A stretch of DNA of 64,000 nucleotides, taken from Euglena gracilis. Lineage: Eukaryota. The notes below the pieces were generated by a model, which had not been told where the DNA came from, did no database searches, and saw only the letters and a list, made by a program, of their open reading frames with translations. Both the position numbers and the translations under genes were made by a program. Shown here piece by piece: positions 4,612-64,000 of this stretch (within the stretch, counting starts at the first letter, position 1; each line of letters begins with the position of its first letter). Where the stretch lies: the NCBI GenBank assembly GCA_039621445.1, contig CP154954.1:18462642-18526641 (forward strand), written 5' to 3'.

Positions 4612-5812
4612 GTGGTTTGGGGGGCACGGAACGCTGGAGAACCCTGTTAGAAGAGAGGTGGGATGGGTGGCGGGAAGGCCAGGGATTAGATTGAGACCTC
4701 TGGACCTTCGGATGATCAGACGTTGGAGGCGGATCGCCTCCAACCGGGTGGACCGCCTCATTTTTGATATCAAAAAAGGTATACGATTCAAGCGTGATCA
4801 AAGAAACAATTCAACAAAAAAAGACACAACGCACACACTGGGACACGCATGTGTGCGAAGGCACAACCACTGCCAAATCGCTCGAGGAGCACATTTTGCC
4901 TCCCACGATACCCCCCAGAGGCCCATGGGATAACTTTCTCGGAATGGGCAGGATGTGTCCTAAGACCTCTCACAACTTGTGCTGCATGCGCACGTTTACA
5001 ACATTTTACAACCCTTTGGGGAAAAGTAGTACTAAAAAGAAAACCCTCTGAACACGTTCATGAATAGGAGAGAATCTCATTCATAATTATTTGTGGTTGT
5101 TTGGGTCATTTGATCATTCGGCGTGACCATTTGGATTTTGAAAAATTCCCAAAATTGTGCTAATTCATGATTCGAAGGAATCCCCGGTACCTAACGAATG
5201 AGCATACACATCTTTCAATTAAGATTTTCCCAACATCTTTCATCTTTTTTTCCTGTCTTTCTCCCCATGCTTCCAAATTTGCACTTTTTCATTATTGCGA
5301 AACAGACAATTTGGTGTTGGACACCAAAAAAAAGATGGGAGCAAGAAAAAACACAGCTGTCCAAACCTTCAAAAATTCAGCTACCAAAAGAAGGTTGGGA
5401 AACCGTGGATTTGGGACCAATACTATTGTTAGTTGGGATTTAAAAGAATGGGCCTTGTGGGGCTGTGCTCCTCCACCAAATCCACTGTTTGCCGTCCACA
5501 TTAACAAAAGAGACTGAAAGTGATCACCTGAATGGCTTCAGTTGTTCGCAAAAAAAATTGTTGTGCAACAGAATTTTTCCCATTTCAGGCCACGTTAGGC
5601 AATTTTAGGCCATTTTAGCTATAAGTGCCTAACCTCCACTGCCCCCCACCCCTGAGGAGTGGGCCCGGAACCAAGGTTGCCTGTGTTTTAAATTTGTTAG
5701 GTTTGGGGAGGTATTGCAAAAACTGGAGCCTTCACTAGACATTTATCCCCACCCCCTTCCACACCCCCCCCACCCCCCACACCCCCCACACCCCCCACAC
5801 CCCCCCCCCCAC

Positions 5813-6171
5813 CATACAATTGCTTACCGCCCCCGGGGGGGGGGGGGGGGGAGGGGGGTCACTCCACTTTTTTAAAAACCAGTCAGTCACTCATTTTCAA
5901 AAAACCAGCCAGTCACTACCCCCCCGGGGGGGGGGGGGGGTCGGCCACTCAGAAAAACGGCCACTTTCCAGTCACTTTAGGCCATTTTAGGCCCAAAAAA
6001 TTTTCCGGCGCCTTCGGCGCCGGGGTCACTCAAGCCACTTTTGCCTACTCCTGGCCGACCCCCCCCGGGGGGGGTCCGGGCCAAAAACCAGTCAGTCACT
6101 CTGAAAAAACCAGTCACCCACCCCCGGGGGGGGGGGGGGGGGGGGTCGGTCAGTGCTTAAGCAATTGCCTG
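5813..6171. mobile_element. hAT-like MITE (CAGGC(A/T)(A/T)TTGCTTAAG TIR group)
   Basis: Left CATACAATTGCTTA, right CTTAAGCAATTGCCTG; 8-bp TSD CCCCCCAC (5805-5812, 6172-6179); central GGCGCC-TTC-GGCGCC hairpin. Confidence 0.75.
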
Positions 6172-7592
6172 CCCCCCACACACACTGGACCACCCCTCAT
6201 CGATGGCCGTATGTATTGCAAAAACGGAGCCCCAGCGATGCCATAAATAGCTATTTTTCCTTTTGGAGTTCGCCATTTTTTGATTTTTCGATTTCATTTT
6301 TGCTCGGATTTCGAAAAATCTTCCGGTGGCCGCATATATTATTATTATACATATATTATATATAATAATATATAAATATATAATATATTATATTATATTA
6401 TTATTACGGAGCCCGCACTGCCCGCCAAGCACCTATAATTGACCCCCAGATTTTCGGCATTTTCGGCCATTTTCGGCCATTTTCGGCCATTTTCGGTCAT
6501 TTTTTTCCTAGAGGTGGGGGGTAAAGCTGCCTTAAAATTCCTTCATACCAACAATGCATTTTGATCATTCAGTCAACATGAAAGCAGTCGTGACAAGCAA
6601 ACGCATCCAAGGAGGTCCGTTTGGAATGGGTGCTCAGGGATTAAAGAGGTCAAAGAGTTTTTTGTTGCAATATGCAAATGCAAGGTTTTGGGAATAGGCT
6701 TCTTATTTACTGCCAGAGAGACTCTTATCCACTTTGGTCTTTTTTTTTGCTGGGGGTTCTTGGGACGCTTCATGAGAGTGGTTGGCACATGACATATTAA
6801 CCACAATGGTGGATGGCAACACCAAAACTGTTGCTTTTCTCTTCAAGCCCCTAGGCATGGATGCTTTTCACAAACAACTTCCCCTCACTTATTCCAACTT
6901 GATACCCCAAGCAACATTGTTTGATGGTGGCACTGTTAGATCCCATCCACTTGTGTGCAATAAACCTAATGCAGGAATCACACCTTCAACGGAGAAAAAA
7001 ACGTTTCACATACTTTGCCTGGTTGCACCTTGTCACCACAATTTTCTGAAATGTCGTCAAAACCATCGGCTTTGGCCCAAATAACCCTTTCGGACGTGGT
7101 TCTTTGAGCAGCATGTGTTGCAGGGCCAGGCATAATTACAAAGAAGAGAGGCTGCACAGAGACAAGAATCAGTCACACTGAAAATTGCCTAGAAAACTGA
7201 AAGGCAAAAAAAAACTCGAAAATTTTGCAAAATTTTTTTCTCATTTTCGGCCATTTTTGGCCGTTTTTGGCCATTTTTGGCCATTTTCGGCCATTTTCGG
7301 GACCCCCAAGGAAAGAGCACAAAATTTCATTTTCGGCCATTTTCCGCCATTTTCGGCCATTTTTGGCCATTTTTACTATAAGTGCTTGCTGCCCGCGCCC
7401 CCCCCCCCGCACCCCCCCCATTATCACTAACCCCCCCACCTCCCTCCCCCCCCTTACCACCAACACCAGGTTTTGAATAGTGCTGAGCTCTTAGCTCTAA
7501 GCGCGCACCCACCCCGTCATTGACCCCCCCCCACATAAACCGGCCCACCCCATGGAACTCTTTTGACTGAGATGCAAGGGTTTTGTGCCTGA

Positions 7593-8020: not shown

Positions 8021-8687
8021 AATTGGCCGAAAACGGTGTCGAACAGTGGAAAAAGTGTACAAAATGGCCTAAATTGGCCGAAAAACGGCCGTATCTCAGG
8101 CTGAGCGGGGAGTTGCGGGGAAACCAAAATCCCAGCAGATGGGGCGTTCCAAGGGCTTCAAATTAGGTCTCTGGACATTTCCTTTGATTTTGCTTCATTT
8201 TGGAGATATTTTGAAAATTGACATTTTTTTTGGCCGAAATGGCAGAGTCCAAAGGGGAGGGCTTATCCAGGGGGGGGGGGGGCCTCTCTCTGCACTGTTG
8301 TCAATCCAGTAGCACCACCAAGCTTTGGCATCATCGCCGCATCGCTTTTTTCGACCCCCCCCCAAACCATTTCCCGGTGAGAAATTGCAGTTGGACCAAA
8401 CCCGCAGCAGCTTTTTCCCCAGCCAGGTTGCAGAGCACCCTCCCTCCCACCCTGGAAGTCGACTGAAATATTATCCAACCCGACTGGAATTGCCTGCTTT
8501 TGGGTGCCAACTGAGAGCCAGCAGTACCCTTGGACCCCCCCTCTTCTTAGACGGCCAAAGTGAAAAATAAGGATTTCTCCAAAGAAATCGAAATTGTCCG
8601 CGGAACTTGCAGTGTATGAAAGCACGAGCCCGGAACGACATGCGCACGCCACACGGCACGATTGCGCGCACTTGCGCACGTAGGGAT

Positions 8688-9118
8688 CAGGCTTTTGCTT
8701 AAGGACCCCCCGGGGGGGGGGGGTACTGGCTAGCCAATCGGCTAGACACTGGAAAAAGTGGACTAGCTAGACCCTGGGGGGGGGGGGGGGAGTCCGGGGA
8801 ACCCCCGGACTGGAAAAAAAAAATTTCTTCCGGCGCTGTGCGCCGGAGGAAAAATGAGGTTTTTAACAGGTTTTGGGCTGATTTTGTTCCAAGAATTCCC
8901 AGAAATGGCCAAAAACGGGCATTTTTGGCCATTTTGGGGGGTCCCAAAAAAAATTTCGGCGCTTCGCGCCGGTCACTGGAAAAAAAATTTTCCACTAGCT
9001 AGCCCTGCTAGCAAACCCCCCGGGGGGGGTCTGCTAGAAAACCCACTAGCCAAATTTGGACTAGCTGCAGTCCAGCCCCCCCCCCGGGGGGTACTGCAAT
9101 CCCTTAAGCAAAAGCCTG
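8688..9118. mobile_element. hAT-like MITE, CTAG-rich family
   Basis: TIRs CAGGCTTTTGCTTAAGG / CCTTAAGCAAAAGCCTG; perfect TSD GTAGGGAT (8680-8687, 9119-9126); sister copy 14651-15106; paralogous empty site near 30679. Confidence 0.92.
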
Positions 9119-9508
9119 GTAGGGATGCCCCCCCCCTTCTCGGGCGCAGTTGCGCCCGTTTTGGCCCCACAATCGCGCGCATTTGCGCACGCTTTGACGG
9201 TAAGTTCAGGCGCAACTGAGCGCGATCCGACCCCTCCTGTGTGGCGTGCGCCTCGGCGCTGAGGACCTCAGAACGAGCGGTGACACTGAGGGAACCAATG
9301 GGGACATGCAGTCTTCACCACCAACCCCCCGGGAGCTGCAGAACAACAAGTCGGCCGCCGAAAAACTGCGGAACACACGCCAGGCAACAGGACCTTGAGC
9401 CCTCCACCGCCCGTGTTGGAGACCCCGAACCAGCCGAACCAGAGGGAAAAACACCCAGCACCGAATCGCGCGCACCTGCGCCTGTGGACGTAGACACTCC
9501 GTGCGCAC

Positions 9509-14650: not shown

Positions 14651-15106
14651 CAGGCATTTGCTTAAGGACCCCGGGGGGGGGGGGGGGACTGGCTAGCAAA
14701 TCGGCTAGACACCGGAAAAAGTGGACTAGCTAGGACCCCCCCTCCCCCCCCCGGGGGGGGGGGGGGGGTCCGGGGGTCCCCCCCGACTGGAAAAAAAATT
14801 TTCCTCCAGCGCTGCGCGCCGAGGTGGAAATGAGGGTTTTAATAGGTTTTTGGCTGATTTTGTTCCAAAAAATTCCCAAAAATGTCCAAAAACGGGCATT
14901 TTTGGCCATTTTTGGGGGTCCGAAAAAAATTTGCGGCGCTTCGCGCCGGTCACTGGAATTTTTTTCCCACTAGCTAGCCCTGCTAGCAGACCCCCCCCCC
15001 GGGGGGGTGGTCTGCTAGAAATCCCACTAGCCAGATTTGGACTAGCTGCAGTCCAGCCCCCCCCCCGGGGGGGGGGGGGTACTGCAATCCCTTAAGCAAA
15101 TGCCTG
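14651..15106. mobile_element. hAT-like MITE, CTAG-rich family
   Basis: TIRs CAGGCATTTGCTTAAGG / CCTTAAGCAAATGCCTG; TSD GTCACAAG/GTCAGAAG (7/8); collinear with 8688-9118. Confidence 0.9.
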
Positions 15107-17050: not shown

Positions 17051-17208
17051 AGTATATGCCTTCATAGGGAGAAAATAGAACGCACTACCAGATGGTTTAA
17101 ACCCCCCATGGTGACAAACATATTATCATACAATTGCCACTATGCGCAATCGAAGGATGGAACTAACGCCAAAACATGAAATATAATATATATATATATA
17201 TACATATA

Positions 17209-17248
<40 letters not shown>

Positions 17249-17303
17249 CTATATATATTATATATATATATATATATATTATATATCTATATCTATATAT
17301 ATA

Positions 17304-17344
<41 letters not shown>

Positions 17345-17348
<4 letters not shown>

Positions 17349-17635
17349 GGTGGGAAGTTTAATACCCCCCGGGGGGGGGTATTAAACTTCCCACCAGGTT
17401 GGGCACCCCCGTTATTGAAGGTATAGGGTTAGGTGCGCACATACTGATTTGTGCTCATCGGCTACGTTGCGCTAATCGGCAACGTTGCGCAAACATTGCC
17501 GATTAGCGCAACGTAGCAAATTAGCGCAAATCAGCATGTGCGCACCTAACCCTATACCTTCAATAACGGGGGTGCCCAACCTGTGGGAAGTTTAATACCC
17601 CCCGGGGGGGGGGGGGTACAAACTTCCCACCTGCC
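17345..17635. mobile_element. Near-perfect palindromic foldback MITE with GGCA termini (Merlin-like)
   Basis: GGCAGGTGGGAAGTTT...AAACTTCCCACCTGCC; the 291 bp is self-complementary almost throughout; each end holds its own hairpin; internal TAGGGTTAGG / CCTAACCCTA; flanked by ATATATAT. Confidence 0.88.
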
Positions 17636-17707
17636 ATATATATATATATATGATATATATATATATATATATAATAATTATATATCTATATATATATAAT
17701 ATATATA

Positions 17708-17746
<39 letters not shown>

Positions 17747-17751
17747 ATATA

Positions 17752-18370
<619 letters not shown>

Positions 18371-18984
18371 ATATATATATTTATATATATATATATAATT
18401 ATATATATTATATATATATAAAATATATAATATATATATATTTCATATATCTATATATAAAATATATATATATATAATATATTATATAATATAAATATAT
18501 TTATATATATAGATATATATATATATTATATCTATATATATATATATATACACAACATATATCTATATATGTATATATATATATATATATATAATATGTA
18601 TATACATATATAGATTATGTATGTGTGTATATATATGTATACATATATATATATATATGTATGTGTGTATATATATGTATACATATATATATATATATGT
18701 ATTTATATAAGAAGGGGCCAAAAAGGATCCAGGAGAGGATGGCTCGATCAACAGAAATCTGGTGTGTATTACACAAAAAAAGCATATCAAAGTCATTACA
18801 CAAATCAAAGCACATCAAGAACATGTGGAAAAAAGAGAATATTGGAGAACAGCATCATTTCGACAAATGCTAGAAAGAAAACCTGAAAATTAGAACAGGG
18901 AAAGTGGTGGGGGTGCCACAATAAAAAAAGAACATGCTGTTTAAAACTGTTGTATCCTAAATTCCCCTGGGTGGAAAACGTGAT

Positions 18985-20325
18985 GGGCTCGTTAGTGCGC
19001 ACATTTGCGCAAATAATAATAATAAATAATAATCACAATTACGTTTGTTTGCGCATTTGCGCAAATGCGCAAATAAACGTTTAACAAACCGCTTCAAAAT
19101 GATGTGTTTCAGCGAGCCTTAACACACACAAACAATATTTGTTTATTTGCGCAAATGCGCAAATAAAAAACATGAGTTGTGCGACACCATCTCCTGCTCC
19201 GTGACAGCTGGCGAATGCAATTCCTCACGCCAACCATTGAATTGCACCACGATTACATGCCGATGAAATTTGTGGTGAGAGGTAGTGTGTAATGCTCACT
19301 GGAACACGGCATGTGACGGGCCAAAATTTGCCTGCCTTACGTGTGCACATTTGCACTGCTGTTACCCGGCCCACACGACCTGTTCCTTTGGCGTCATCTG
19401 TTTGGAAGTTAAACGTCATGAACTGATGACGTGCAAACTACCTGTGTCTGTTTGACACCTTTTCTGCAACAGTACTGCGTTGCAAGAAGTCAAAATTTGG
19501 CATCTGAAATACCGGGATGCGTCGGGCCGGAGTCCGTTTCATGGTTTTTCACCACCATTTTCCCCTTGAAAAACGTAAAACACACCAATTTTTGTGCATA
19601 ATTCGGCGGGAGTGATCCCACCGCTTTGAGGCCACCAATCCAGTGGTACACGTTCACCATTTCCTTGCACCCAAAGCAGCGGGTGTTTGAGGGCTGTCTC
19701 TCTCCGGCCGCTGGTTGCCATGCACTGGCACCACGTTGTCCCCCCTATCAAACCCTGAGCCCAGGCCGCAGGTCAGCGGCAGGGCCCTTGGGACCCAAAA
19801 ATTGGTGCCGGTGGAGGTGCACCGTTACTGGGTGGCTGCGCACTCACCTTCAGGAGATCCTCTGTCTCAACCTTCCCTGGGACCTGTCAATGGTCCAAAA
19901 ACGGCCCCATAACACCATATGCCAGAGGAGATGGTGTGGTCACTTGGTTGAACCCATTCAGAAGCCACTAAGGGTAGCTGTAGGAGGGCCAAACGAAATC
20001 GTTTTTACTTCTCCATTGGTTGTTCATTTGCGCATTTGCGCGCATCACGTTGTTTTGGGCGCAAATGCGCAATAAACCAGATGTAAATTGTGCAGTTTCT
20101 TCATGCAGTTTATTTGCGCATTTGCGCCCACAAACAACGTGATGCGCGCAAATGCGCAAATGAACCACATCTGCTGCTGGTGTTTGACGGTTGTGTTTCC
20201 GTCACACCGTCCTTCTTTGTGTTTATTTGCGCATTTGCGCAAATAAACAAAGAACATGTTTGTTTGCGCATTTGCGCAAATGCGCGCATAAACATAATTT
20301 TGTTTGTGCGCGCATTTGCGCCCAT
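18985..20325. mobile_element. Probable non-autonomous DNA element with clustered TTTGCGCAAATGCGCAAA subterminal repeats
   Basis: Motif clusters at 18995-19165 and 20025-20320 around a unique core; exact TIR and TSD not resolved. Confidence 0.5.
19848..19883 (-). CDS. Candidate 36-nt micro-exon (VPGKVETEDLLK)
   Basis: ttgacAG acceptor and consensus GTGAGT donor; open in phase 0. Confidence 0.35.
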
Positions 20326-32402: not shown

Positions 32403-32930
<528 letters not shown>

Positions 32931-32959
32931 GGTGCAGAAGGAATTGTGCGTGGCTAGCG

Positions 32960-34134: not shown

Positions 34135-34171
<37 letters not shown>

Positions 34172-45282: not shown

Positions 45283-45287
45283 CCTGA

Positions 45288-45359
45288 CCCTAACCCTAAC
45301 CCTAACCCTAACCCTAACCCTAACCCTAACCCTAACCCTAACCCTAACCCTAACCCTAA
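45288..45359 (-). repeat. Interstitial telomeric tract (CCCTAA)12
   Basis: 12 perfect hexamers; the tract starts at 44818, before the nested MITE. Confidence 0.95.
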
Positions 45360-47967: not shown

Positions 47968-47970
47968 GCT

Positions 47971-47971
<1 letters not shown>

Positions 47972-48052
<81 letters not shown>

Positions 48053-48210
48053 TATACATATATATACATATATATAGCCTCCCATATACATATATATGTG
48101 TGTGTATAATATATATGTGTGTATGTATATATGTACATATATATGTGTGTATGCAGATATATGCACATATACGCACACACATACATATATATACATACAT
48201 ATGTGCATAT
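47972..48210. repeat. (TA)n/(CA)n microsatellite
   Basis: Directly visible. Confidence 0.92.
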
Positions 48211-49510: not shown

Positions 49511-49990
49511 GGCCAGTAGTTTAACGAGGGGGGAGGTTCGGAGCCCCCCCACGTTAAAAAAAAAACCCAATCCACATGTGTTTTCACACTTCCCACCGGA
49601 AACGTCCTGGAAAAATGTGCAGGGCGGAAGTCCGACTCCACATGGAACAGGGGCCAGGGATAAGGTTAGGGTTTAGGGGTAGGGTTAGGGTGAGGGTAAG
49701 GTAGGGAAATTGGGTTAGGGTTGGGATTCAGGGCAAGTTGGGCCGAAAATTAGGCCAAATTTTAGGCCTGAGTTCAGGCCGAATTTCGGCCAAACTCCCT
49801 AACTTCGGCCAAACCCTAACCCGGATGCCCTTTGGAACGGCAACCGTAACCCTAACCCTGTCCCTAAAAATTACTGCCGTTGATACCCCATCAGCTTGCG
49901 TTCAAGAAGGTGGACCTCCCCTCATTTAACTACTGCCGCCTGGGGGAGAGGGGGGGCAGTAGTTAAAGCCTGCAGTAGTTAACTACTGCC
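49511..49990. mobile_element. Degenerate telomere-repeat-bearing foldback element
   Basis: GGCCAGTAGTTTAAC / GTTAACTACTGCC; TTAGGG block 49660-49725 facing CCCTAA block 49795-49866; terminal hairpin; TSD not recoverable. Confidence 0.65.
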
Positions 49991-51519: not shown

Positions 51520-52135
51520 CCCCCCCCCCTTGTCGTTGGCACGCCAATGTTCCAGGAAAGTGTCGTTGGCACGGGGGGGGGGGTCAAAGACACGCTGTCT
51601 CAACGGCACGGTAGCATTGGAGAGAGAAAAAAAAACAGACCAGACCAGCATCAATCGGCCTCCACACTGTATCATTGACCACTTGGCAGCCTCCAACTAA
51701 AGGGCCCCAGGGGAGGGGGCTTTAGTTGGATTCGGGGGCAGCAAAAAAAAAATTGCGTTAATGATGGAGTAGGGTTAGGGTTACGAATTTGGCCTAGCTT
51801 CAGGCCTAACTTGTGCACCTAACACTAATCTATAAGTTTGGCCTAACCCTAACCCTAAGTCGTAACCCTAACCCTATTCCTTCAATAACGCTAAAAAAAA
51901 TTGCCCCCCCCCCCGACCCAACTAAAGCCCCCCCCCCCCCCCCGGGGGGCCCTTGAGTTGGAGGCTGCCGACCACTAAGACTGCACCAAATCACCAAATT
52001 CATCGGGGAAAGCACTCGAGGCCATGCCTGGGAAGCAGATCCGACACAATTTTGAAGTGGTTTGGCTGAATTTCCTCCTAAACCGAGGCCAGCGCAAATA
52101 AAATTTATGTTCCAGAAAATGCCGTTGACACGGAG
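51520..52135. repeat. Host repeat of MITE 51685-51969; uninterrupted paralog at about 57495-57820
   Basis: Shared cccccccttgtcgtt, aggaaagtg, actgcaccaaatcac, ttggctgaatttcct, ggccagcgcaaa. Confidence 0.75.
51685..51969. mobile_element. Merlin-like foldback MITE with internal telomeric repeats
   Basis: TIRs GGCAGCCTCCAACT / AGTTGGAGGCTGCC; TSD GACCACTT/GACCACTA; paralogous empty site near 57625-57640. Confidence 0.9.
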
Positions 52136-52392
52136 GTGTCAATGGCACCCTGAGTCAACGACACAAGGGGGGAGGTACACAGCTCGGGGGAAAAGCAGTC
52201 GTTTTGCAGTCGCATAAAAATAGGCCCCATGACGGTTCCCGGCGAAGGACGCCACCGGCCCTCAAAGAGAGGCCGCCGCCCATCGCCGAGAACCATCCGT
52301 TGAGGAGTACGGGGGGCCTCTGACGGGTGCGGAGCCCCCTTCGTTGGCGCAATACGAGGGGCTGGGCGCCAGTTGTACCGGCCTCTGTGGCC

Positions 52393-52697
52393 CAGGGCGG
52401 TTCTTAAGCAAATGAAAAACAACTTCGCTGTCCCAGCACACTCAGTAAAAAATGCACAAGAAGAAATTTTGGCATTTTTCGGCGAGAACAGGTCGACATC
52501 GGGAAAAAAATTGATTCCTGGCACCCTTGGACCATCGTCCATCCACCCAAATCATCAAAAACTGTTATTTCCGACTGTTAAATTTCTGCACCTGTTCAAA
52601 TCCCAGTCTGGCCCTTGGCCGGCCCTTTGGCCGAAAGGGGGGGGGGGGCGGCTCTTAAGGAAATAAAAAACTTTCCTGTCCCTTAAAGACTGCCCTG
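52393..52697. mobile_element. hAT-like MITE (CAGGGCGGT family)
   Basis: CAGGGCGGTTCTTAAG / CTTAAAGACTGCCCTG; perfect TSD CTGTGGCC. Confidence 0.9.
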
Positions 52698-53321
52698 CTG
52701 TGGCCTGAAGGGCGGTCGGCCAAAGCAGGCCGCTGGCTGTGGGGGCAAAGAAGCAGGGACCCGAAGGAGGGGGTTGGCCCCCACCCAACCCTCCACCCTT
52801 TGGGGGGCGGGGGACCTGCTCTCGGGGCTCTTAGGGTGTCGATTTTGGGGCCAAAATTTTTCAGTGTTTCGCCGAAAATAGAGAGAGAGGAAACCCTTCA
52901 AAGAATAGGACCACCCACTCCCCCCGCAAAATTTCCATTCAGCACCGAAGGAATTTTCGACGGCAAGGATTCAAAGGTTTTTAAGACATTTTCACTGCTT
53001 TTTATTAGGTTTCTGACAGTTGTTTTTAAGGTTCTGTTTTCAAGGTTTGTCCCAGGGCCCACTCGGCATCAAACGGGGTCGAAAACTTGAAGAAGAAGAA
53101 AAAGCCTCATTTTGGGGGGTTGGGAGGGACAGAAATGTTCCTGCGATGCCAGGAATCGTTTTTTTCTCTGGGGTTGGGCTTTTGTTAACGGAGATTTTTG
53201 CGACGTCATTTTTGCTCGGGTGAATTTCATTTTGCCCGAATAAAGTGATTAGGGTTTCTAGTATTTTAAAGCATTTTGGCCAAAAAAAATGAGGGTTGTC
53301 AAATGATACTATTGAGGCGAC

Positions 53322-55356
53322 CGTCAGGAGTCGGTAAGCAATGGTGTGTGTCCAATAGCTCTGACGAAAACAATGCATTGCCCATCGTGTTGTGGGCGTT
53401 ATCTCGGCAGAATCCCTCCGAGAGATTTCTTTTAAAAGTGTGGGTATCCCTCAAAAATCGCCCCTTCGAAATATGGGAAGGGGTGGGGGTACCCCACTCA
53501 CCATCCACAGGGTTTCGGGGATTCCCGCACAGCCCTGCGGACCAGACATACCTTTGGTGCACCCCCAATTGCATCCCCAACACGTGCATACCGGTGCGTC
53601 CCCACACGGGGACCTCCACCTGTGGTGAGGCCACAGTGGAGTAAAATGAGACTAAGGTCACCAGGGTCGAAAAAAGGAGGACATGGCGGTTTGCGATGAA
53701 CCAGCCCCTGCCCACAAAGTCCCTCCGAGAACTCTTGCGTGCTCGTTTGTAATAACTATCCACTCAAAGAGAGTAAATGGCACAAATGCTTGTCAGGGCC
53801 TGAAGGAAATAAAAAAAAAACCAACTCTGCTGTCCCAACACATGCAGCTAAAAAAAAACACAGGAAAAAAAATGGACAGGCATTTAGCATTTTCGGCGAA
53901 AACAGGTGGACACCATTGGGAAAACATTTTTTAATTGGTCTCTGGCATCTTTAGACCTTTGCCAAACCAGCCAAAACACCAAAAAACGCAATTTTCAACT
54001 TTTTGGTTTTCGACCTCATTCAAGGCCCAGACTGGACCTTGGTCGGCCCTTTAGCCTTTAGAGGAGGGGTGGTCCTTGAGAAATAAAATAAAATTCCCCG
54101 TCCCTTAAAGACTGCCCCGGTGCTTGGAGAGTCAACTTGTGCTGTCCATTATATGGCACCACGATACCATGGTGTATGATGCAGCAGAACTACCATGGGT
54201 CATCAAAGATCAGGATTTTTGATTGGGTTTACAAGGACACCTTGGCTATGTTTGCAAGAGGGCATTGCTGGAGGAATATTGAAATCAGGTTTTCAATACC
54301 AACTCTTAAAAGGAGTCCAGTCACTGGAGCAGGAAAGCATTTAACCATATAAATATTCAGTGTTTTTATGAATCACTGAAAATAAAACAAAGAAAGGCAC
54401 AAAACCTCCAAATACAGACATCAATGGGAAACTGCAGACAAACCATGCGGCAGTGCTGGTGGATTCTGTGCATGCCCACAATACGTAATAAATTCGGGGT
54501 AATCATAGACAACCACAGCAAAAACTTTGGAGGGCTCCAGTTCCGGGAAAAGCCACATTGGAACAATCAAACCAGTCGGCTGGCACTCCTGGTAAAAAAA
54601 ATAAACCCCTCGTGCCTGGTTGCCAGCCTCTCCCCAACCCACACACGCCGTCCCAAATCGGGGTTTCCGTCTCATTGTGGGGGCCATTTCTGCATTCATT
54701 CGCACAGAACGTTGCCGCCGGTGGTCTGGAGGCCTTCTTGGCCAAAATCCCACCGCAATGGGTGGTCAGACGATGGCACCGCCACAAACAGTGGCCAGAA
54801 AGGAAGAGTGCTGGGGGGGAGTGGGTTGGATACCGTCAGGATCAGCATCAACCATCCCCAACAAGAACCGCTTTCACAATTGCGCCTGTGGTTTTTGTGC
54901 TGGCGGAAAATGTGTCTGGGTTCTTATGGGAACGCCACTTCTGTTGGCCCCCATTCATCCCATCAACCACAAACCACTGTCCGGGGTCTCCCATGTTAAA
55001 CAAATCATGAAGAAATTGGGATGCCAACACACGGTGTGTGAGGCACACCGTGCGCAACCATGTGTCTTTCGATGAAAGTTGACTGGAAAAGTAATGGCAT
55101 TGAAAATTTGATTTCCTGCTATTATTTGTCTCTTGCATTGTTTTGTCACCTTTTTTTTTAAAAAAAAGTGACAAAAAAGTCAGGCATTGAAAGAAGGTGT
55201 GATACATATGGTGTGTCGGCATCCCCAATGGATAAACATGGGCCAACGTGCAGGCACCCATGCGCAGGCAGACCCATCCATTGGTCAAAAGTGGGGGGTC
55301 ACCGGGCATGTGGGGGGGTACAATGGGGAGTATAGTCGGTCTGGACCCCTGTGGTC
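53322..55356 (-). CDS. Candidate micro-exon chain 55356-55303, 53619-53592, 53534-53502, 53360-53322 (DHRGPDRLYSPLYPPTCP-VEVPVWGRT-GLCGNPRNPVD-ELLDTHHCLPTPD)
   Basis: Strong sites ccacAG/GTATGC and ccgcAG/GTGAGT around a 57-nt intron; all phases compatible; product unknown. Confidence 0.35.
53794..54119. mobile_element. hAT-like MITE, sister of 52393-52697
   Basis: CAGGGC / CTTAAAGACTGCCCCG; TSD ATGCTTGT/GTGCTTGG (6/8); collinear interior. Confidence 0.72.
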
Positions 55357-55836
55357 CTGATTATGTGGCCAGGAAGGGATGTGAAACCGACAGCTCAGGG
55401 AGAAACCTGGAACCTGTGTCAGGGACAGTGCGTCTGCAAAGCAAGTGGGGCACTTTGGGGCAGCAACTTGGCTCGCCGGCAACACACACAGAAACAGAAA
55501 GACTGCCAGACAGGCACACACAAAATAAAACACACACACACACACACACACGTGTGCGCACAAATAGACAGAAAGGGACACCACAAACACACATAGACAG
55601 AAAGGGACCACCCACCAACCAAACCTTCCCCACCCCCCCCCACAAACTTTGAAAAATCCCCGGTCCGACCATCCCAGCCACCAACAGGACCGCCGACCAC
55701 TAGGCAAAAAGCCAGAGGACAAGACGGCAGGGGCAAAGGTCGGTGGGGCCTCCAGTTACACACCAGCCGACTTTGACAGCCACACGACCCAACAACCAGC
55801 TCCCCCTCCTATCACTTTCCTCCACCACCCCAGGAC

Positions 55837-56131
55837 CAGGCCGTTCTTTACCAACCCCGGGGGGAGGGGGGGGGGGGGTCCGGAGTGCCTATGAGTGCCT
55901 GCCCAGGCAGGCACTACCCCGGGTCGGATGTCGGGGGGGGGGGTCGGATTTCGGCTGTGCCCAGGCACATTCCTTTGAAAATAGGCCATTTTTGGCTCCC
56001 TGGCGCCTTCGGCACCGGGTCTGTGCTAGGGCACTTTTGGACGTGTGCCCTACCCCCCCCCCGGGGGGGTTGATTTTTGTGCCTTGGAGTGCCTGCCCAG
56101 GCAGGCACCCCCCACCTTAAAAAAAAGCCTG
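55837..56131. mobile_element. hAT-like MITE (GCCTGCCCAGGCA family), uninterrupted
   Basis: CAGGCCGTTCTTTA / TAAAAAAAAGCCTG; perfect TSD CCCAGGAC. Confidence 0.88.
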
Positions 56132-56671
56132 CCCAGGACTGATCCTCTTCAGGGGAAAAAAACCAAATATCCAATGGAAAACAGAGAAGAAAATGGCGGG
56201 AATTATCGCAAAACCATCACCACATTTGAGGGGGGGAGTAGGCGGTGGGAAGGGGGGGAGGGGGGGAGAGCTCGACTTTCGGAGGAAGGAAAAGGCGATT
56301 TCTGGCATCCTTGGAGCATCGCAGATGCACCCAAACCTTCAAAAAATGCGCTTTTTGGCTTTGTGATTTTTGATCCCGTTCAAACTCCTTTACCAGCCAT
56401 TGGCCGGCCCTCAGGTCAAAGGGTGGTACTTAGTGAGGAAAAAAATCCTGTCCACAAGAACCCCCTTCCCAGACTGGGATTTTTTAAAGCACCTTATAAG
56501 ACCTTAAATGTCTTAAAACGCCCTAAAAACTTGAACTGGCAGAACTTTCCCGGGGGGGGGGGGGGGATTATTTTTGATTTTTGATTTCTGACATTCTTGG
56601 AACATTGTCCATCCAACCAAAGCTCAAAAAAATTTTACGCTGGAGCAGTCTAACAGCAAAAAGCTGGTCCA

Positions 56672-57055
56672 GTGCCCAAGCCGCTCTCGGGTCGCCCCTG
56701 GATCGTCTTCAAGGAGGCATCGAAGACGGAAGGTTGGCATGACCCTGAGCAGCCAATGGCTCTGAGGCTTCGAAATCGCTTTCCCAAAAAACCTAAGCGG
56801 AGTCAGTCAAACCCACCCCCCCTCCCCGTCTCAAGGTCCTCAGCCAAAATGACTCGGGGGCTGTGTTGGCTCCAACCACCCAGAAGGCCAGCGAGCCAAT
56901 GGGGTGGGGGGGGGGGGGCGTTCTTAAAAACAGCGTCACTCGGCCCAGGGGTGGAGGGGGTTCTCTCTCAGAGTGGTCCTCGGTCCTCAGTGGGGTCCAA
57001 GCCGTCAAGAGAGTTATCGCAGAGTTACCCGGGAGGCATCCCCTTGGGCAGCAGG
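56672..57055 (+). CDS. Two candidate exons (56672-56732, 56972-57055): VPKPLSGRPWIVFKEASKTE-EWSSVLSGVQAVKRVIAELPGRHPLGQQ
   Basis: tccAG and ttctctctcAG acceptors, GT donors, phase-1 join; GC3-rich. Confidence 0.25.
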
Positions 57056-58544
57056 GTCCACACGCCACACGTTCCAAAAATGCTCAAACAACTTCAACAA
57101 CAACAAGTTCAAAAATGCTCAAACAACTTCTGCAGTGTTGGGGATAAATCAAACAGTCGTTTTGAAAGGGTGGGGTTCGTTTGAAATTTGATATCTGTGA
57201 TATTGTGCACACGGGTAGGCCCCTGTCCGACGCAGCTGCACCGCTAGCTCTGCCAAGGCGCACCAGCAAAGAGAACAAACTATTGCATTTCCCCCAAAGG
57301 TGGAAATTGTGTGGTTTTCCGATTTTTTTTGCATGAGGAGTCCATCAAATATATGCAAATATATGAATTCCCAAAAAAGCAGCAGGAAATGTTTTCACGG
57401 TAATTTCTCGGCCAATTGGTGATGACAGGCTGGAGGTTAAGTTCTCAAGAGATGAAATTGCTTGGGGACGGAAGCTACATGGGAAACATTACCTCCCCCC
57501 CCCTTGTCGTTTGACACGCCACTGTTCAAGGAAAGTGCCGTTGATACGGGAAGGGGGGTGTGACGACACAGTACTATGGGGGAAAAAAACTGACAGTGCC
57601 AGCAACGATTGGCCTCCAATTATACCATTAGCCTCTCATACTGCACCAAATCACTGAATTCAAAGGGAAAACTTTGAAATTTGAGGCCAACGGCTGGGAA
57701 GAAGATCTCTTGGCTGAATTTCCTTAGAAACTATGGCCAGCGCAAAAAAAAAATTAGTTTTGTAATATAAATAATGAATAATAAAAATAAATGTTCCAGG
57801 AAAGTTCCATTAACACGGGGGCATGCCAACAGGGGTTTTCTTAGGGACCCCCCAGGGTGGTCCAGCAAAAAGGCTGCTGGCTGGAAATGAGCTGCAGGCT
57901 GGACCCCCCTCCGGGGGATAGGGGGGGGGGGGGCGGGGGCTGGGGGGGGTGGGGGTTGGCTGGGTCGATGACAAAAAATTCTAAAACATTTTTGCCTTCT
58001 CGACATTTTGATGGATGGAGCTAGATCAAGGCTGGGGGGCTGTGATGGAGGAAGGTGTGATGAGGGGGAAAAAATGCAGGGATGACCCCCCCGGGGATGG
58101 GGCACCCTCCGGCTTAAGAAAACCCCTGCATGCCAGCGACACGTGTGCCAACGACGGGGGGGGGGGGGGGATGGAGAGGGGGGGGGGGGGGGGGGGGGGA
58201 CCCCCCACCCGCCATGGACCAGAAGAAAACCAGGCGCTCCAGGCGCTGAAAGAACCTCGAATCGAACTGACCAAACATCGGCACCAGCTGAATACAGGAA
58301 GGCCTGGTGGGGATGGGAAACCCAACCACCGGGATGGGGGGGGGGGGGTCGACCATTCATCATCCATTGGGTTTTGGGGATCCTTATACAGCCCTTGGAA
58401 AATTGGATGTTCTTTAGCACTTGCATAATTTGAAGGGCCAAATTGCATATCCCCCCCCTGCCTGCCGGCCGGGGGCCAGCCGGATGCAGGCTGGCCAGCC
58501 AAGTGGGCTGCCCAGCTCACCTCCAGCCAGCCAGCAGCTCAAAG

Positions 58545-60107
58545 CAGGGGCAGGGAGATATTCTGGTCGGCCGAAGATTTTATTCCGGGGTTTTATTCCG
58601 GTTTATTCCGGAATTTATTCCGGTTTATTCCGGTCAATTTCTGTCTGAATGGACCCAGGATTTTTTTGAAGTGCAATTGGGCCGAGGCGTTCACCCGTCA
58701 CTTAGCACTTGGTGATGCGGGTCTGCACACCACAGCAGACCGCGGCCTTTTTGGGAAAAAAGCCGATGAAAATTGGTGCCAGGGTTTTTCTCTTGAGGCG
58801 GGTCCCTGAGACCGCTGTCTTTTTTCTTCCCAAAAATTGTCTCACCGAATGTCTTGGGCGGCCTAACTCGCACTTAGCTTTGAAAGTGTAAAATTGCGCC
58901 GACGCGCTTTTCGAACACCGAGGCCTGAGGTTCAGGACAATCCAAATTAGTGTCTTCCTACCACCCCCCCCCCAGGGCCTGGGGACAAAAGTAACAACTT
59001 GGAACTGTACGGTGCACGGGCACAGCGCTCCCCGGGCCCAGTGTGCATGACCCCAAAGCACCGGGTAATGAAACGAGGGAACACCATTGCGCAGTTGCGC
59101 CATAGCGCAACAATTTTTTTCATTCCAAAAAAAACACATTGCGCTTTGGCGCGATGTTTTTTTGTAATTCTGAATGTGGGGGATCATTGCGCACTTGCAC
59201 AATAACAACAACATATGCGTCAACATGTGTTTTCATTGCGCATCCGCCGAAGCGGACACCTCAGCAGGCAAACCTTCACGGACAGATCGCAGAGCCTAAA
59301 AAAGCAACAAAACGGGCCAAAAAGTCAACTGGCCTGTGTAGCACCATCTGGGGAACACAGTCAAGGCTTCAAAAATGAGGGAGACACAATGGAGTGTTGG
59401 CCCTTTTTGGGAAAATTCACGTGTCCTGGTGTTCAAACCCAGGGGTTTGAACCTTTTTTAACCTGGTGCACAGGCGGAAAAAACACCAAGGTTGTGGCTG
59501 TTCCCTGGGTCCCAACATCAGCAAATGATGCATGTGCCACCGTGGAGGGTCCCCACAGAACCAGAGGGCCAAAAGGGTGGGTTTCACCACCGGGCTTCAA
59601 AAAGAATGCAACGTTGCCCTTAAGCACAATGTAAAAATCAAAACCTTAAGTGCAAGTTAGGCCGCCTAAGTGTTATTACCCCCTGATTGAAGGACGATTA
59701 GCTTTGGCCAATGGGATCCCTGCCCCCAAAAATCAGCGTTGATATTGTCCTAGTCCATGCCCCTTTGGAAAAAACTCAGGGACAAACATTCACTAAGTGC
59801 AGCCCCACAAGTGGGGATAAAATCCAAACAAAGAATGCATTCAACCAGGGGGAGAAAATAGGCAAAGTAAAGGTGTGCTCCTGATATCAAGTGCCAATTG
59901 TGCTACTTGCGCTCTTTGTTGCTCTTGTGATTTTGAAACCTGAAAATATATCAAACTTCACCTTCATTGCCTTTGTGTCTTGCAGAATTTTCAAGCTATT
60001 GGCTGGCACTTTTATTCCGTTTATTCCGGTTTTTTCTGGCTTATTCCGGTTTTCGCTAGTCCGGTTTATTCCGGTTTATTCCGGACCAGAATATCTCCCT
60101 GCCCCTG
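58545..60107. mobile_element. 1.56-kb P-element-like non-autonomous transposon
   Basis: Perfect 24-bp TIR CAGGGGCAGGGAGATATTCTGGTC; subterminal TTTATTCCGG arrays at both ends; TSD CTCAAAG/CTCAAAT (6/7); no transposase ORF seen. Confidence 0.85.
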
Positions 60108-62501
60108 CTCAAATCCAGCCAGCAGCCCAAATTCGGGCTGGGAGCCTCCCCCCCCAGCGGGTCAAGTGAAATAAAGTTGGGTCCAGCCCGGCCGCAGGGG
60201 TGGGGGGAATATGCAACTGGCATACTTTGCATTTTTTTGCATAATCAGATTTTTTTGAAATTTGCATTTTTTTGCATTTTTTGCTTAATTTTTTTTGCCC
60301 TGGAAAAATGTTATGCAAAAAAAAGGACTTTTGTGCTGCATTCCTAGCATCAGGTATGCTCTCCATTTTCGTAAATGTCCTAAATGTCCGCTTTATTGAT
60401 GTTCAATGGTGACCTGGAGGGACGATTTGCTTAGAATGAACGTGCAGGTGCCATTCAGGTTGATTTTCAAAGCTTCAGTGCTTCCGTTGTCTTCCAGGAG
60501 GTCTTCTTTGTGAATCATTGACAGGTGCACCGGCATTGTCACATGTTTACGGATTTTAGGCAGCAAAACTCTGCTACATTCCAGCCTTTTCTCAGGGGTA
60601 TATGCAAGTTGCATTTTTTCTTTTTTTCTTTTTTTTTTTTGCATTTTTTGCATTTTTTTTTTTGAGCAAAAGAAGAGAGGACCCACCGAACATCCATGAT
60701 CGACCACCCTTTTGTCTCCCGATCCCGTCCACATCGCCCGCCATCAGCCTCAATGGTGTTTGAGGGCCTCAATGGTCCTTTCAGCTTTTGTCCCATTTTT
60801 TTGGCCAGTTTTGTTTGCGTTTAGGCTGCCTTTGGCTGCTTTTGGGCTGCCTTTGGCTGCTTCTGTGCGAATTTGACACTCTGAGCCCAATCTTGGCTTC
60901 TTTGGGAGGCAAGCCTATCAAACGCTGCTAAAAAAAAATGGCAAAATATGACCAAAAGTGACCAAAAAAAATTACCAAAAAAGAGCATAAAAAAAGCAGT
61001 CAAAAGCAGCCAAAAGCAGCCAAACTGGTCAAAGCTGGGCAACAATGGCCCAAAATGACAGAAAAAAAAAACAGCCAAAAATGACCAAAATTCGTCAAAA
61101 GTGGCTAAAAGCAGCCAAAATGGCCAAAAAATTGCTAAGTCAAAATATCAAAGAAAATGTCCAAAAATGTGCCGAAGGGGGGGAAAGCGACCAAAGCAGC
61201 CAAACCTGGCAAAGAAATAGGAAGAATGGCCAATAATGACCAAAAGTGTGAAAATATTTAACAATAGAAGCCTATCTATGGCCTCCATAAATCCTGCAAC
61301 GCCCTGTATCGCCTTCTGCAGCATCGAAGGTGCTTGGAACCCACCCCTAACAAGAGCACGACGGAGACTGGATGGATGTCAGCCCCACAGGAGGCTCAGG
61401 CTGGGTGCAGCGAGTCGGAGCACAGAGGCTTATGGGTGGCCCGCAAACCATTCTCCAGGAGGGACAGGGATGGCGTTAGACAGTGCCAGGGCTGCACAGG
61501 AAAGTCTGGTGGGGGGGATCTCCACCCAGGAGGTAGGGGGATCAACCCCCCCCAGCCACCACACAGCACCCGCTCAAGGAAAATTTTGACCAGAAAATCG
61601 GCGCTCCCGGAAATTGGGGGGGGGGGGGGTCAGACCCCCGACCAGGGGGAGGGTCGACCCCCCACCGCCACCCATAACCCCCACAAAAAATGAGACCCCC
61701 CCCAAATAAGACCCCCCCCCCGCCGACGCCAAAAAGTCTACCCAGGGTCTTATTTTTGGGGGGGGTTGGGGGTTTGGGCATTCCGGTACAACCCTGGTCG
61801 TCGCCCATAGCCCCGGGGCCCCCCGCAGCGGACAGGATGTGTGGTGCCAGACAGACAGGATTTGTGGTCCCATGTGTGGCAGGCAAATGGATGAGTGAAC
61901 GCGTTTGTCCTGGGCTGAGGACGCAAGTGCGACGTGTGGGCATGCAGCAGCACACTCGCGTGCAGCGTTCGAATGGTGCAATCAGCTCCAACGGTTGTGC
62001 AGTTCAAGCGCATCCCCTAATGGAAGCCCCATGCCCAGGCACATGCCCATATTGCAGGTATGTGTTTCCACCAACGACCATTAAGTACATGATGTTCACT
62101 TTTCGAGGCTTTCGCCGCCGCATCTCCACGTGGGCTTGCCGCACACCGGCCCCCCCTCCCCCGCCTCCAATCGAACCCAAGCACCCTCACCTCACCTCAC
62201 CTCACCCTCCAAGCGGTCCCAAATATGCACATTTGTACTATTACTCGTTAGCCGATGAGAAATCCACAGGGTCCTCACACCACCTACCTCTGGCATACCA
62301 TTCCAGACCGCCAACCATGCTTTTTTCAACAACAAAAAAACCTGAGGTGCCTTGTGCTATGGGATGCCTGCCCACAGCAGGCATCCCCCCACAGGATCCC
62401 AATGCTTGCTGACCAAGCCAGATTTCCTTTTGGGCCTTTTGGGGGCCCAGTGCCGAAGGCGGGCGGTGTGCCATCGCGCTGCCCAAGGCCCACCTCACAA
62501 C

Positions 62502-62968
62502 CAGGGTTTGATATGAGGACAGGTGGGGGGGGGGTCCGGACCCCCCTGCGGGCCGGGAGGGGGGGGGGGGGGGGGGGGTGGGGGGGACACCCCCCCACCT
62601 AAACAGTGGCGCGGTCCGGGTGACCGCGCCACTGACCGAATTTCGGACCAGGGACCGAATTTCGGCCCGGCGCTTTGCGCCGGGCCGGAAATTTTTGACC
62701 CCCCCAAAACGACACAAAGTGCAATTTTGGGCACTTTTTGGTGCTAAAATTTGCCAAAATGAAAAAAAAAATTCGGCGCAAAGCGCCGGAGGAAAAAAAT
62801 GACCCTTTTGGGGGGGGGCCGGTCCCCCCCCCCCCAGGGTTCAACCCGACCCCCCTGGGAAGGGGGGGGGGGTGGGCCGGGCCCCCCCCCCGCAGGCCAG
62901 GAGGGGGGGGGGGGTGGGGGGTACACCCCCCACCTAAACCATGTACGCCCTCCTTTTATCAAACCCTG
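62502..62968. mobile_element. hAT-like MITE, sister of 43084-43508
   Basis: CAGGGTTTGATATGAGGA / TCCTTTTATCAAACCCTG; perfect TSD CTCACAAC. Confidence 0.92.
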
Positions 62969-64000
62969 CTCACAACCCCACCCCACAACCCAACCCAACC
63001 CCCCCCCGGGGGTCAAAAGTGCCCCCCCCCTGGCCTGCCCACATCACCCCCCGGGGGAGGGTCGGGCGAACTTCCCTTTGCCTGGCCCTGACTCCCCCCG
63101 GGAGGGAGAAAAAGCCTACCTGCAAGGAGGGGGAAACTGTCCAGCATTCGGTTGCCAGGCATTTAAATTTTCGCAGTTTTGGATTTGTCTCGTTTCCTAT
63201 GCATTCTTTTGAAGTGCTGGTTTTTCGTACCCGTTTTTATGCAGTTTGCTCCTTCTGCTGCCAGTTCAGGAAACCTCTCCCCCCCCCTGCCAAAAACAGC
63301 CTGCCTGGGAGGCCTTAATCGCGGAGGTGGAAGGGGGCAGCTCAGGGAAAGCAGGCTTCTTTAAAAGAGTGCATCATGAGTGTGCTATGGACAGGTAGGC
63401 AGGAGAAGGACCATCGGATGCGCTATGGACGGGCTCGCATTTTCGGTGTCATATTTTCCGCCATAGCATTCTCATCAAAACAACAATGTCCCCGGCCCCA
63501 TCGGCTCATGCCCCGGAATGGCTTGGCTGCAGAATGGGGAACTGTTGGACCTTGACCAGCCCAAAAATTACTCAAAAGGTTGCACAACATTGCGAAGGAA
63601 AAGACATATCCCAGCCCCCCCCCCACCTCCCCCCAACGAACTGCAGTGGCACACTGATAGTCGTTGTTACTGTCCCATTGAGGCATGCTACGCCAGGGGG
63701 GGGGGGGCAATACAATGCAGTGTCAGGCCCTTGGCCTCGGTCAAGAGGTCAGCCAGACCCAGGGATGTGTGAGAAGCCCAGAGGAGGGGGGGGGGGTCAG
63801 ACCAACCTTCAAACGCAGGAAGGGGGCGGGGGGGGGGGGGGGCCTCCCCATTCGACAAGGAAATTGTTTCGGCTGGCTTGTCCGACTGCTTTGAGTTCCT
63901 GAAAACAACCGCTCATTCCAATGCTTTCCACACCACATTTTCCATTGAAATATCAATATCCCCAATCAGGGTGTTCCTTAACGACCTTGGGGGGGGGGGT

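Follow-up and report, generated by a model that had tools for sequence, protein, structure and literature searches.

A gene-poor, repeat-rich locus

The window, by which we mean the whole 64-kb stretch of DNA analysed here, holds no gene that could be recognised, and it carries short elements bounded by inverted ends and flank repeats. Pfam matched no family among the 540 window ORFs of at least 55 aa, a window scan found no 3-base (codon) periodicity outside a microsatellite, and neither a tRNA nor any Rfam match at gathering score was found; the 82 Rfam matches obtained all fell below that score, most of them being microRNA-hairpin models that fall on microsatellites or on palindromes of the MITEs. 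Three long ORFs were considered as genes and rejected, their sequence resembling random translation. No remnant of a reverse transcriptase or a transposase was found in the 64 kb.

The window has a GC content of ~50.6%, tandem repeats make up 6.0% of it, and a TTAGGG-type interstitial array is present. Together, the GC content, the lack of reverse-transcriptase or transposase remnants, the tandem repeats and the TTAGGG-type array are unusual for plants, animals and fungi and match published Euglena gracilis figures, none of them being diagnostic. The draft E. gracilis genome paper gives <1% coding sequence, with CDS on only 3.6% of contigs >10 kb, and the paper on the chromosome-level assembly puts homology-detectable transposons at ~2% and tandem repeats at 9.85% of 2.37 Gb.

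Short elements with CAG...CTG ends and 8-bp target-site duplications

A strict scan of the window, requiring a CAG head, an inverted end with at most 3 mismatches over 14 nt, an 8-bp flank repeat with at most 1 mismatch and a length of 100-2000, returned eight CAG...CTG elements whose ends pair and which are flanked by 8-bp target-site duplications (TSDs). These occupy the first eight lines of the list below; a ninth element, with TAG...CTG ends, follows them, and then the other elements discussed in the text.

8688-9118: family A MITE, 431 bp, ends CAGGCTTTTGCTTAAG, 16/16 inverted; perfect TSD GTAGGGAT at 8680-8687 and 9119-9126
14651-15106: family A MITE, 456 bp, ends CAGGCATTTGCTTAAG, 16/16 inverted; TSD GTCACAAG/GTCAGAAG
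40560-41875: family C MITE, ~300 bp without its nested insert, ends CAGGC...GCCTG; perfect TSD CTCGCCAC
43084-43508: family B MITE, 425 bp, ends CAGGGTTCGATATAAG, 15/16 inverted; perfect TSD ACCCATCC
52393-52697: single-copy MITE, 305 bp, ends CAGGGCGGTTCTTAAG, 13/16 inverted; perfect TSD CTGTGGCC
55837-56131: family C MITE, 295 bp, ends CAGGCC...GCCTG, 11/16 inverted; perfect TSD CCCAGGAC
57830-58128: MITE, 299 bp, ends CAGGGGTTTTCTTA, 15/16 inverted; TSD CATGCCAA/CATGCCAG
62502-62968: family B MITE, 467 bp, ends CAGGGTTTGATAT, 14/16 inverted; perfect TSD CTCACAAC
26667-26922: MITE with TAG...CTG ends, 256 bp, 12/16 inverted; TSD GATGTGGC/GATGCGGC
6426-7388: hAT-like element, 963 bp, ends CAAGCAC...GTGCTTG; perfect 8-bp TSD CTGCCCGC
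40755-41767: nested element, 1013 bp, ends CAGGGCAGAACGGGAAG...CTTCCCGTTCTGCCCTG; possible further member
44776-45971: relative of the nested element, ~1.2 kb, GGGCAGAACGGGAAGC...CCGTTCTGCCCTG; possible further member
45169-45394: possible further member
47691-47967: GG-ended element, 277 bp, GGCAGCCTCC...GGAGGCTGCC; flank repeat GCTTATAT/GCTTACAT
51685-51969: GG-ended element, 285 bp, GGCAGCCTCC...GGAGGCTGCC; flank repeat GACCACTT/GACCACTA

Chance produces next to none of these: across 100 first-order Markov simulations the strict scan returned a mean of 0.01 elements and a maximum of 1. When the flank repeat was not required, 131 CAG...CTG inverted-end pairs were found in the window, and a flank repeat accompanied 8 of them at offset 0 versus 0-2 at offsets 1, 2, 3, 5 and 9. 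The signal is likewise specific to the head, since among all 64 3-nt heads CAG gave 8 separate elements and any other head at most 2 separate loci, the matches for AAA, ATG and TAT being multiple pairings within repeats. It is specific to the repeat length as well: the eight CAG elements show 7-8 of 8 matches at k=8 and no more than 4 at k=6, 7, 9 or 10. Inverted-end pairs counted by head with the TSD not required showed no clear excess for CAG.

An earlier sequence-only reading had named six elements of this kind and counted 12 in all. Each of the six lies where that reading placed it and has CAGG...CCTG, inverted ends and 8-bp direct repeats; its count holds for nine firm elements, the other three (40755-41767, 44776-45971 and 45169-45394) being possible extras with ambiguous or poor TSDs. 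One of the duplications it had listed, GATGT|GGC, belongs to the TAG...CTG element at 26667-26922.

Families A, B and C are each present twice (at least three such families), beside single copies, and the MITEs are 256-467 bp long. The two members agree in 393/421 aligned columns for family A, in 373/416 for family B, and in 220/240 for family C, where 55837-56131 was compared with the host part of 40560-41875. That host copy is interrupted by the nested element, which sits within its C-run/G-run and whose own TSD is ambiguous because the flanks are of low complexity; the relative at 44776-45971 has its left end within a G-run and likewise a low-complexity TSD. The identities between copies, along with the nested insertion, point to multiple insertions. 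Element interiors consist of G-run/C-run palindromes and a common GC hairpin. Families A and B also appear to differ by a permuted order of modules, an impression that may be an artefact of the palindromes and the low complexity.

Probable hAT-type and possible Merlin-type elements

The nine copies begin with CAGG(G/C), or with TAGGG on one arm, and 11-16 of their first 16 nt are inverted; all nine have an 8-bp TSD, perfect in six and with one mismatch in three. The defining features of hAT elements are an 8-bp TSD and inverted ends of 10-25 bp, a length range given in PMC8961557, and the Ac/Hermes group prefers nTnnnnAn targets (PMC8961557; PMC10368747). Position 2 of the TSD is T in 5/9 copies (p 0.039) and position 7 is A in 6/9 (p 0.012), so that both positions fit an Ac-type target, on a small number of copies. 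The terminal consensus of hAT elements is YARNG; the four of nine copies that start with CAGGC agree with it at 4/5 positions, and the fifth base fits only in the CAGGG copies. The larger element at 6426-7388 is hAT-like too, with CAA/TTG where the others have CAG/CTG. We conclude that the CAG...CTG elements are very probably non-autonomous MITEs of the hAT superfamily of DNA transposons, lying in gene-poor, repeat-rich DNA.

An 8-bp TSD is shared with other superfamilies. P elements likewise make 8-bp TSDs. So does Merlin, which PMC8101967 defines by terminal 5'-GG and an 8-9-bp TSD. At both 47691-47967 and 51685-51969 the termini are GG...CC and each 8-bp flank repeat contains one mismatch; by their termini and flank repeats, these GGCAG...CTGCC elements fit the Merlin type. 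The sequence-only reading had set GGCA-ended families aside as controls beside a 7-bp-TSD class; their flank repeats are 8 bp as well, and they fit Merlin rather than the 7-bp class.

No hAT transposase or fragment of one was found by Pfam on the window ORFs, so a transposase partner is something we infer. Under the mechanism we propose, a hAT transposase encoded elsewhere would bind the MITE ends and excise the element, the excised MITE would be pasted across an 8-bp staggered cut, and repair of that cut would produce the target duplication. Searches for relatives returned little: a MITE-internal ORF compared with a protein collection gave 308 word-sharing candidates, none at E ≤0.001; pattern scans of metagenomes and viral contigs for further copies gave 0 matches; and the element end strings occurred in literature text only as 3 chance matches, in primer lists.

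Fit of the elements to the nonconventional-intron code

[quoted passage not shown] The intron features on which the sequence-only reading had drawn (CAG at +4..+6, CTG at -8..-6, a terminal stem and Y|R junctions) are all found in the literature. Its central arithmetic, 3+5=8, is right: when the cuts fall 3 nt upstream of CAG and 5 nt downstream of CTG, what is lost is the element and exactly one TSD copy. For the GGCAG-ended elements the sum differs, and 3-4 extra bases would stay behind. The end geometry of the CAG...CTG elements coincides with the experimentally defined Euglena code. hAT elements in general have CAG...CTG ends and an 8-bp TSD, however, and the match is therefore not special to this window.

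We cut hypothetical introns at TSD position 5|6 from the eight CAG elements on both strands, giving 16 readings. Minimum-energy folds had terminal helices of 5-18 bp, and CAG (+4..+6) paired with CTG (-8..-6) in 14/16. The 3-nt and 5-6-nt spacers follow by construction for the eight intact CAG/CTG copies if the cut is made there; the copy at 26667 fails because of its TAG, and this mutation of the CAG makes 26667-26922 a natural negative control for the code. A purine would start the acceptor exon in 11/16 readings over the two strands, which is near chance. As the sequence-only reading had observed, several TSDs have Y|R at 5|6: we counted 3/9 on the + strand and 6/9 on the - strand, that is 9/18 against ~4.5 expected (nominal p 0.019, with small n and strands that are not independent). 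Position 8 of the TSD is C in 6/9 copies (p 0.0099).

If the host is a Euglena, a copy inserted in an exon would be excised exactly from the mRNA, provided that its CAG and CTG are intact and that TSD position 6 is a purine. Along the extended stem, the offset of 3/5 would amount to a 2-nt 3' overhang. Such an overhang is the cut geometry of RNase III-type enzymes, and would point to cleavage and ligation rather than to the spliceosome.

No link between euglenid nonconventional introns and hAT or an 8-bp TSD was found in the literature, where supplements may hold tables of junction-repeat lengths; the '8 bp' in PMC12501133 refers to the -8 position. How these introns originate and how they are removed has been a question since the 1990s. 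The sequence-only reading had stated that a transposon origin was proposed only in general terms, and the literature agrees, speaking only of 'MITE-like' sources. If true, a hAT link through 3+5=8 would account for why the spacers are fixed, why Y|R occurs at both junctions, why boundaries are 'slidable' and why a newly gained intron has 8-nt repeats. The MITE finding is solid; an origin of introns from such elements is an attractive hypothesis.

Competing readings of the fit

One reading, a serious possibility and not yet a probable one, is that the host is a euglenid that has living donors of nonconventional introns in these hAT-type MITE families, or in close relatives of theirs; splicing would then undo an 8-bp-TSD insertion at the RNA level. 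The knock-in-defined code and the splicing of synthetic introns built on it argue for this, as do the published introns of E. agilis: direct repeats occur at the junctions of 84.4% of its introns, and 69.1% of its annotated nonconventional introns are slidable, the junction direct repeats making the exact boundary ambiguous. High-confidence intron junctions of this species number 649,158 in PMC12501133. A newly gained gapC intron of the same species has eight-nucleotide direct repeats (PMC4770533). On the donor reading, the Y|R consensus common to the two junctions, the many repeats at junctions and the eight-nucleotide repeats in the youngest known intron might all go back to the target site of the transposon. 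The C at TSD position 8 and the Y|R at 5|6 in the window copies point the same way, although these TSD statistics come from just 9 copies. As for the host, a 64-kb stretch free of genes and transposon proteins, its tandem repeats and its TTAGGG-type array fit E. gracilis. The GG-ended, 8-bp-TSD elements resemble Merlin families, two of which are reported from E. gracilis; Merlin also occurs in Symbiodinium and others, so this hint is not specific to Euglena. Against the donor reading, the same geometry occurs in hAT elements of any host, the window carries no gene or RNA diagnostic of the host, and no copy lies in recognisable coding sequence of the window.

The elements could instead be ordinary hAT (and Merlin-like) MITEs of a non-euglenid host, in which case the fit to the code is generic hAT geometry without bearing on splicing. 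We regard this as possible, if somewhat doubtful. CAG-type ends and 8-bp TSDs are superfamily-wide in hAT, and the copies sit in apparently non-coding DNA. A non-euglenid host is harder to reconcile with the base composition, the missing reverse-transcriptase and transposase remnants, the tandem-repeat content and the TTAGGG-type array, all of which match E. gracilis.

It is very improbable that the window has unannotated genes and that the elements are nonconventional introns of these. The ends of the elements do satisfy the code, and Euglena exons are short enough (the draft genome paper gives a median of 112 bp) to be missed, perhaps, when ORFs and Pfam are screened. But the ORFs yielded no Pfam family and the DNA no codon periodicity, and intact 8-bp TSDs with 90-93% identical copies are how recent transposon insertions look anywhere in a genome. 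Reading frames through the restored empty sites argue against it too, the best ORF per site measuring 32-89 aa, compared with 41 aa (median), 85 aa (90th percentile) and 100 aa (95th percentile) at random positions. Frames through restored sites are thus no longer than elsewhere, and no copy in the window can be called exonic.

Comparison with known systems

Described hAT MITEs of the Ac/hobo/Hermes group, for example those of plants, share with the window elements the 8-bp TSD, short CAG/TAG inverted ends, an nTnnnnAn-like target, small size without coding capacity, and an organisation into families of similar copies. The window elements differ from them in having no autonomous partner or transposase in the window and in their G-run/C-run palindrome interiors. 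The Merlin superfamily shares GG termini and 8-bp flank repeats with the elements at 47691-47967 and 51685-51969, which come with no IS1595-type transposase in the window.

The euglenid nonconventional introns (Milanowski 2014, 2016; the PNAS 2025 code) resemble the window elements in placing CAG and CTG 3 nt and 5 nt from the would-be junctions, in the terminal stem, and in direct repeats at the would-be junctions; an acceptor exon that starts with a purine is seen in the 11/16 readings above, a share near chance. Transcripts define the published introns, whose junction repeats are mostly shorter and decayed, whereas the window copies are known from DNA alone. Finally, the introners of Micromonas, Aureococcus and dinoflagellates share with our proposal the principle that the insertion of a MITE-like transposon gives rise to an intron, removed together with one TSD copy (PMC11282704). 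Introners rely on the spliceosome and on GT/GC-AG sites derived partly from a 3-bp TSD, whereas the proposal made here would combine a non-spliceosomal CAG/CTG rule with an 8-bp TSD.

Elements with CAG...CTG ends are hAT-type MITEs

The sequence-only reading had described short elements with CAG...CTG ends and 8-bp target-site duplications (TSDs) and had likened their layout to that of euglenid nonconventional introns. The six elements that it named are correctly placed and have CAGG...CCTG inverted ends bordered by 8-bp direct repeats. A strict scan (CAG head, 14 nt of inverted end with at most 3 mismatches, no more than one mismatch in the 8-bp flank repeat, 100-2000 bp) returned eight elements from the window; when the window was simulated 100 times with a first-order Markov model, the mean was 0.01 and the maximum 1. 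A ninth copy, with TAG on one arm, accounts for a target site, GATGT|GGC, that the earlier reading had listed. The nine copies add up to 4250 bp and so make up 6.6% of the window.

Table. CAG...CTG elements and further candidates in the window, with GC hairpins (CGGCGC-NNN-GCGCCG)
8688-9118: strict scan; family A; hairpins 8831-8845, 8957-8971
14651-15106: strict scan; family A; hairpins 14807-14821, 14934-14948
26667-26922: ninth copy, TAG on one arm; TSD GATGTGGC/GATGCGGC
40560-41875: strict scan; family C, with a nested element inside
43084-43508: strict scan; family B; hairpins 43211-43225, 43317-43331
52393-52697: strict scan
55837-56131: strict scan; family C
57830-58128: strict scan
62502-62968: strict scan; family B; hairpins 62668-62682, 62774-62788
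40755-41767: further candidate; flank repeat ambiguous or poor
44776-45971: further candidate; flank repeat ambiguous or poor
45169-45394: further candidate; flank repeat ambiguous or poor

The flank repeat is tied to the element ends in both position and length. When it was not required, 131 CAG...CTG inverted-end pairs were found, 8 of which had a repeat at offset 0, against only 0-2 at offsets 1, 2, 3, 5 or 9. Its length is exactly 8 bp (7-8 of 8 matches; at most 4 matches at lengths of 6, 7, 9 or 10), and among all 64 three-letter heads CAG gave eight separate elements, with every other head giving at most two separate loci. Many spurious inverted-end/TSD pairings come from a palindrome-rich block of TTGCGCAAATGCGCAAAT-like units at 19004-20321. 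About eight short AGGCGG-NNNN-CCGCCT hairpins also cluster within 2.8 kb at 21031-23790; two of them, CAGGCGG-GAAA-CCGCCTG, form mini-palindromes of 18 nt that have CAG...CTG ends but lack a flank repeat.

An 8-bp TSD and inverted ends of 10-25 bp define the hAT superfamily, whose Ac/Hermes group prefers the target nTnnnnAn (PMC8961557, PMC10368747). Among the nine copies, TSD position 2 is T in five (p 0.039) and position 7 is A in six (p 0.012). The element ends start CAGGG or CAGGC; the hAT terminal consensus is YARNG. These are real hAT-type MITEs in non-coding DNA, a known kind of transposon. The window holds no transposase (no Pfam family in 540 stop-to-stop ORFs of at least 55 aa), so the nine copies are non-autonomous and would have been mobilised in trans.

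At least three families are present twice: A (8688 and 14651, 393 of 421 aligned columns in common), B (43084 and 62502, 373 of 416) and C (55837 and 40560-41875, 220 of 240; the latter copy, compared by its host part, contains a nested element of 1013 bp with ends CAGGGCAGAACGG). Families A and B differ at their ends and have in common a central GC-hairpin module, with exactly two hairpins per copy, 106-127 bp apart, in all four copies (8 matches versus 0.07 expected); the module may serve as a subterminal binding site or have some other function. At position 6 of the inverted end, one family A copy has T where the other has A, mirrored on both arms (8688-8703/9103-9118 versus 14651-14666/15091-15106), so that each keeps a perfect 16-bp inverted repeat. 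This single paired change would be compatible with pairing being under selection or with a founder of a subfamily.

Fit to the nonconventional intron code

The intron features invoked by the sequence-only reading agree with the literature: nonconventional introns carry CAG at +4..+6 and CTG at -8..-6, their ends form a terminal stem, both junctions read Y|R and repeats at the junctions are frequent, and a MITE origin has been proposed for them in general terms only (PMC3935182, PMC11282704, PMC6221363, PMC12621601). Its arithmetic also holds: cuts placed 3 nt ahead of CAG and 5 nt past CTG take out the element together with one copy of the TSD. The code has been defined by knock-ins in E. gracilis: every base of CAG and CTG is required, no change is tolerated in the 3-nt spacer that precedes CAG, the one that follows CTG is 5-6 nt long and the acceptor exon begins with a purine; wholly synthetic introns of 50 bp that had these features, together with complementary arms of 12 bp, were spliced (PMC12501133). 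By construction, a transposon with CAG...CTG ends and an 8-bp TSD conforms to every rule except the purine. The match is one of general hAT geometry, not special to this window.

We considered hypothetical introns consisting of each of the eight CAG elements plus one TSD copy, cut between TSD positions 5 and 6, on both strands. CAG pairs with CTG in 14 of the 16 minimum-energy folds, with terminal helices of 5-18 bp, and a purine opens the would-be acceptor exon in 11 of 16 strand readings, close to chance. Y|R falls at the cut in 3/9 copies on the plus strand and 6/9 on the minus strand, a mild excess in a small set of readings that are not independent. At TSD position 8, six of nine copies have C (p 0.0099), which with nine sites is a lead rather than a result. 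More speculatively, offsets of 3 and 5 nt on the two sides of an extended stem would amount to a 2-nt 3' overhang, which is RNase III-type geometry.

An intron of E. agilis gapC is present in only one strain and is therefore new; its junctions carry eight-nucleotide direct repeats, longer than in other introns studied, and its authors interpret them as a sign that a double-strand break was repaired (PMC4770533). Repeats of just this kind are what an intact hAT-type TSD predicts, and a Y|R consensus shared by both junctions would likewise follow from duplication of a single target site. Neither the gapC intron nor the knock-in code was cited by the sequence-only reading; both strengthen the intron link, and an origin of nonconventional introns from such MITEs is a coherent candidate reading. 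We found no link between these introns and hAT or an 8-bp TSD in the literature, whose supplements may hold relevant junction-repeat tables; searches for such a link led to the papers that propose a MITE origin in general terms and to one on Merlin elements, and neither "hAT" nor "8 bp" occurs in a 2024 review by the group that put forward the MITE origin.

No gene was found in the 64-kb window: there was no tRNA, no Rfam match at gathering score and no rise in three-base periodicity except on a single microsatellite region. Frames through the restored empty sites span 32-89 aa (random positions: median 41, 95th percentile 100). No copy in the window can therefore be called exonic.

Other elements and genomic surroundings

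Table. Other elements in the window
6426-7388: CAAGCAC...GTGCTTG element; perfect 8-bp TSD
47691-47967: GGCAG...CTGCC element; 8-bp flank repeat, one mismatch
51685-51969: GGCAG...CTGCC element; 8-bp flank repeat, one mismatch

The GGCA-ended elements were put forward earlier as negative controls; the two GGCAG...CTGCC elements among them have 8-bp flank repeats. Merlin elements are defined by GG termini and 8-9-bp TSDs, and two Merlin families have been reported in E. gracilis (PMC8101967); given their GG termini and 8-bp repeats, these controls are probably a second, Merlin-like superfamily rather than a 7-bp-TSD class. Long (AT)n arrays (17181-18709; 47640-48200) contain or adjoin GGCA-ended elements (17345-17635, 17873-18370, 47691-47967), which suggests that these elements target AT repeats or that the arrays expanded from AT-rich target duplications. 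Telomere-like arrays lie at 45283-45362, 47768-47891 and 49655-49860; an interstitial (CCTAAC)13 array is of TTAGGG type, and degenerate arrays in inverted orientation also occur inside GGCAG/CAGTAG-ended elements.

At 32403-34318, arrays of (TG)n (514 bp) and (TGTT)n (944 bp) account for a GC/AT skew spike at 32-36 kb and for the window's only three-base periodicity signal. Across the window, A runs of at least 8 outnumber T runs (86 versus 21), AT skew is positive in 14 of 16 4-kb bins, and CpG observed/expected is 0.61 (GpC 0.95). Of the words sampled from 52000-61999, fourteen DNA-like sequencing runs contain 0.74-0.78, and six small runs that may be RNA contain 0.11-0.14.

Less than 1% of the E. 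gracilis draft genome is coding, and 3.6% of its contigs longer than 10 kb carry CDS (PMC6366073); the 2.37-Gb assembly has 9.85% tandem repeats and about 2% transposons recognisable by homology (PMC11252322). A euglenid host is somewhat more likely than not, and the window fits such a genome in features none of which is diagnostic: its GC content (50.6%), the lack of any gene or transposon-protein remnant seen across 64 kb, its tandem repeats (6.0%), TTAGGG-type array and Merlin-like elements, and its long AT and TG arrays, which resemble those described in Euglena introns (PMC11170887).
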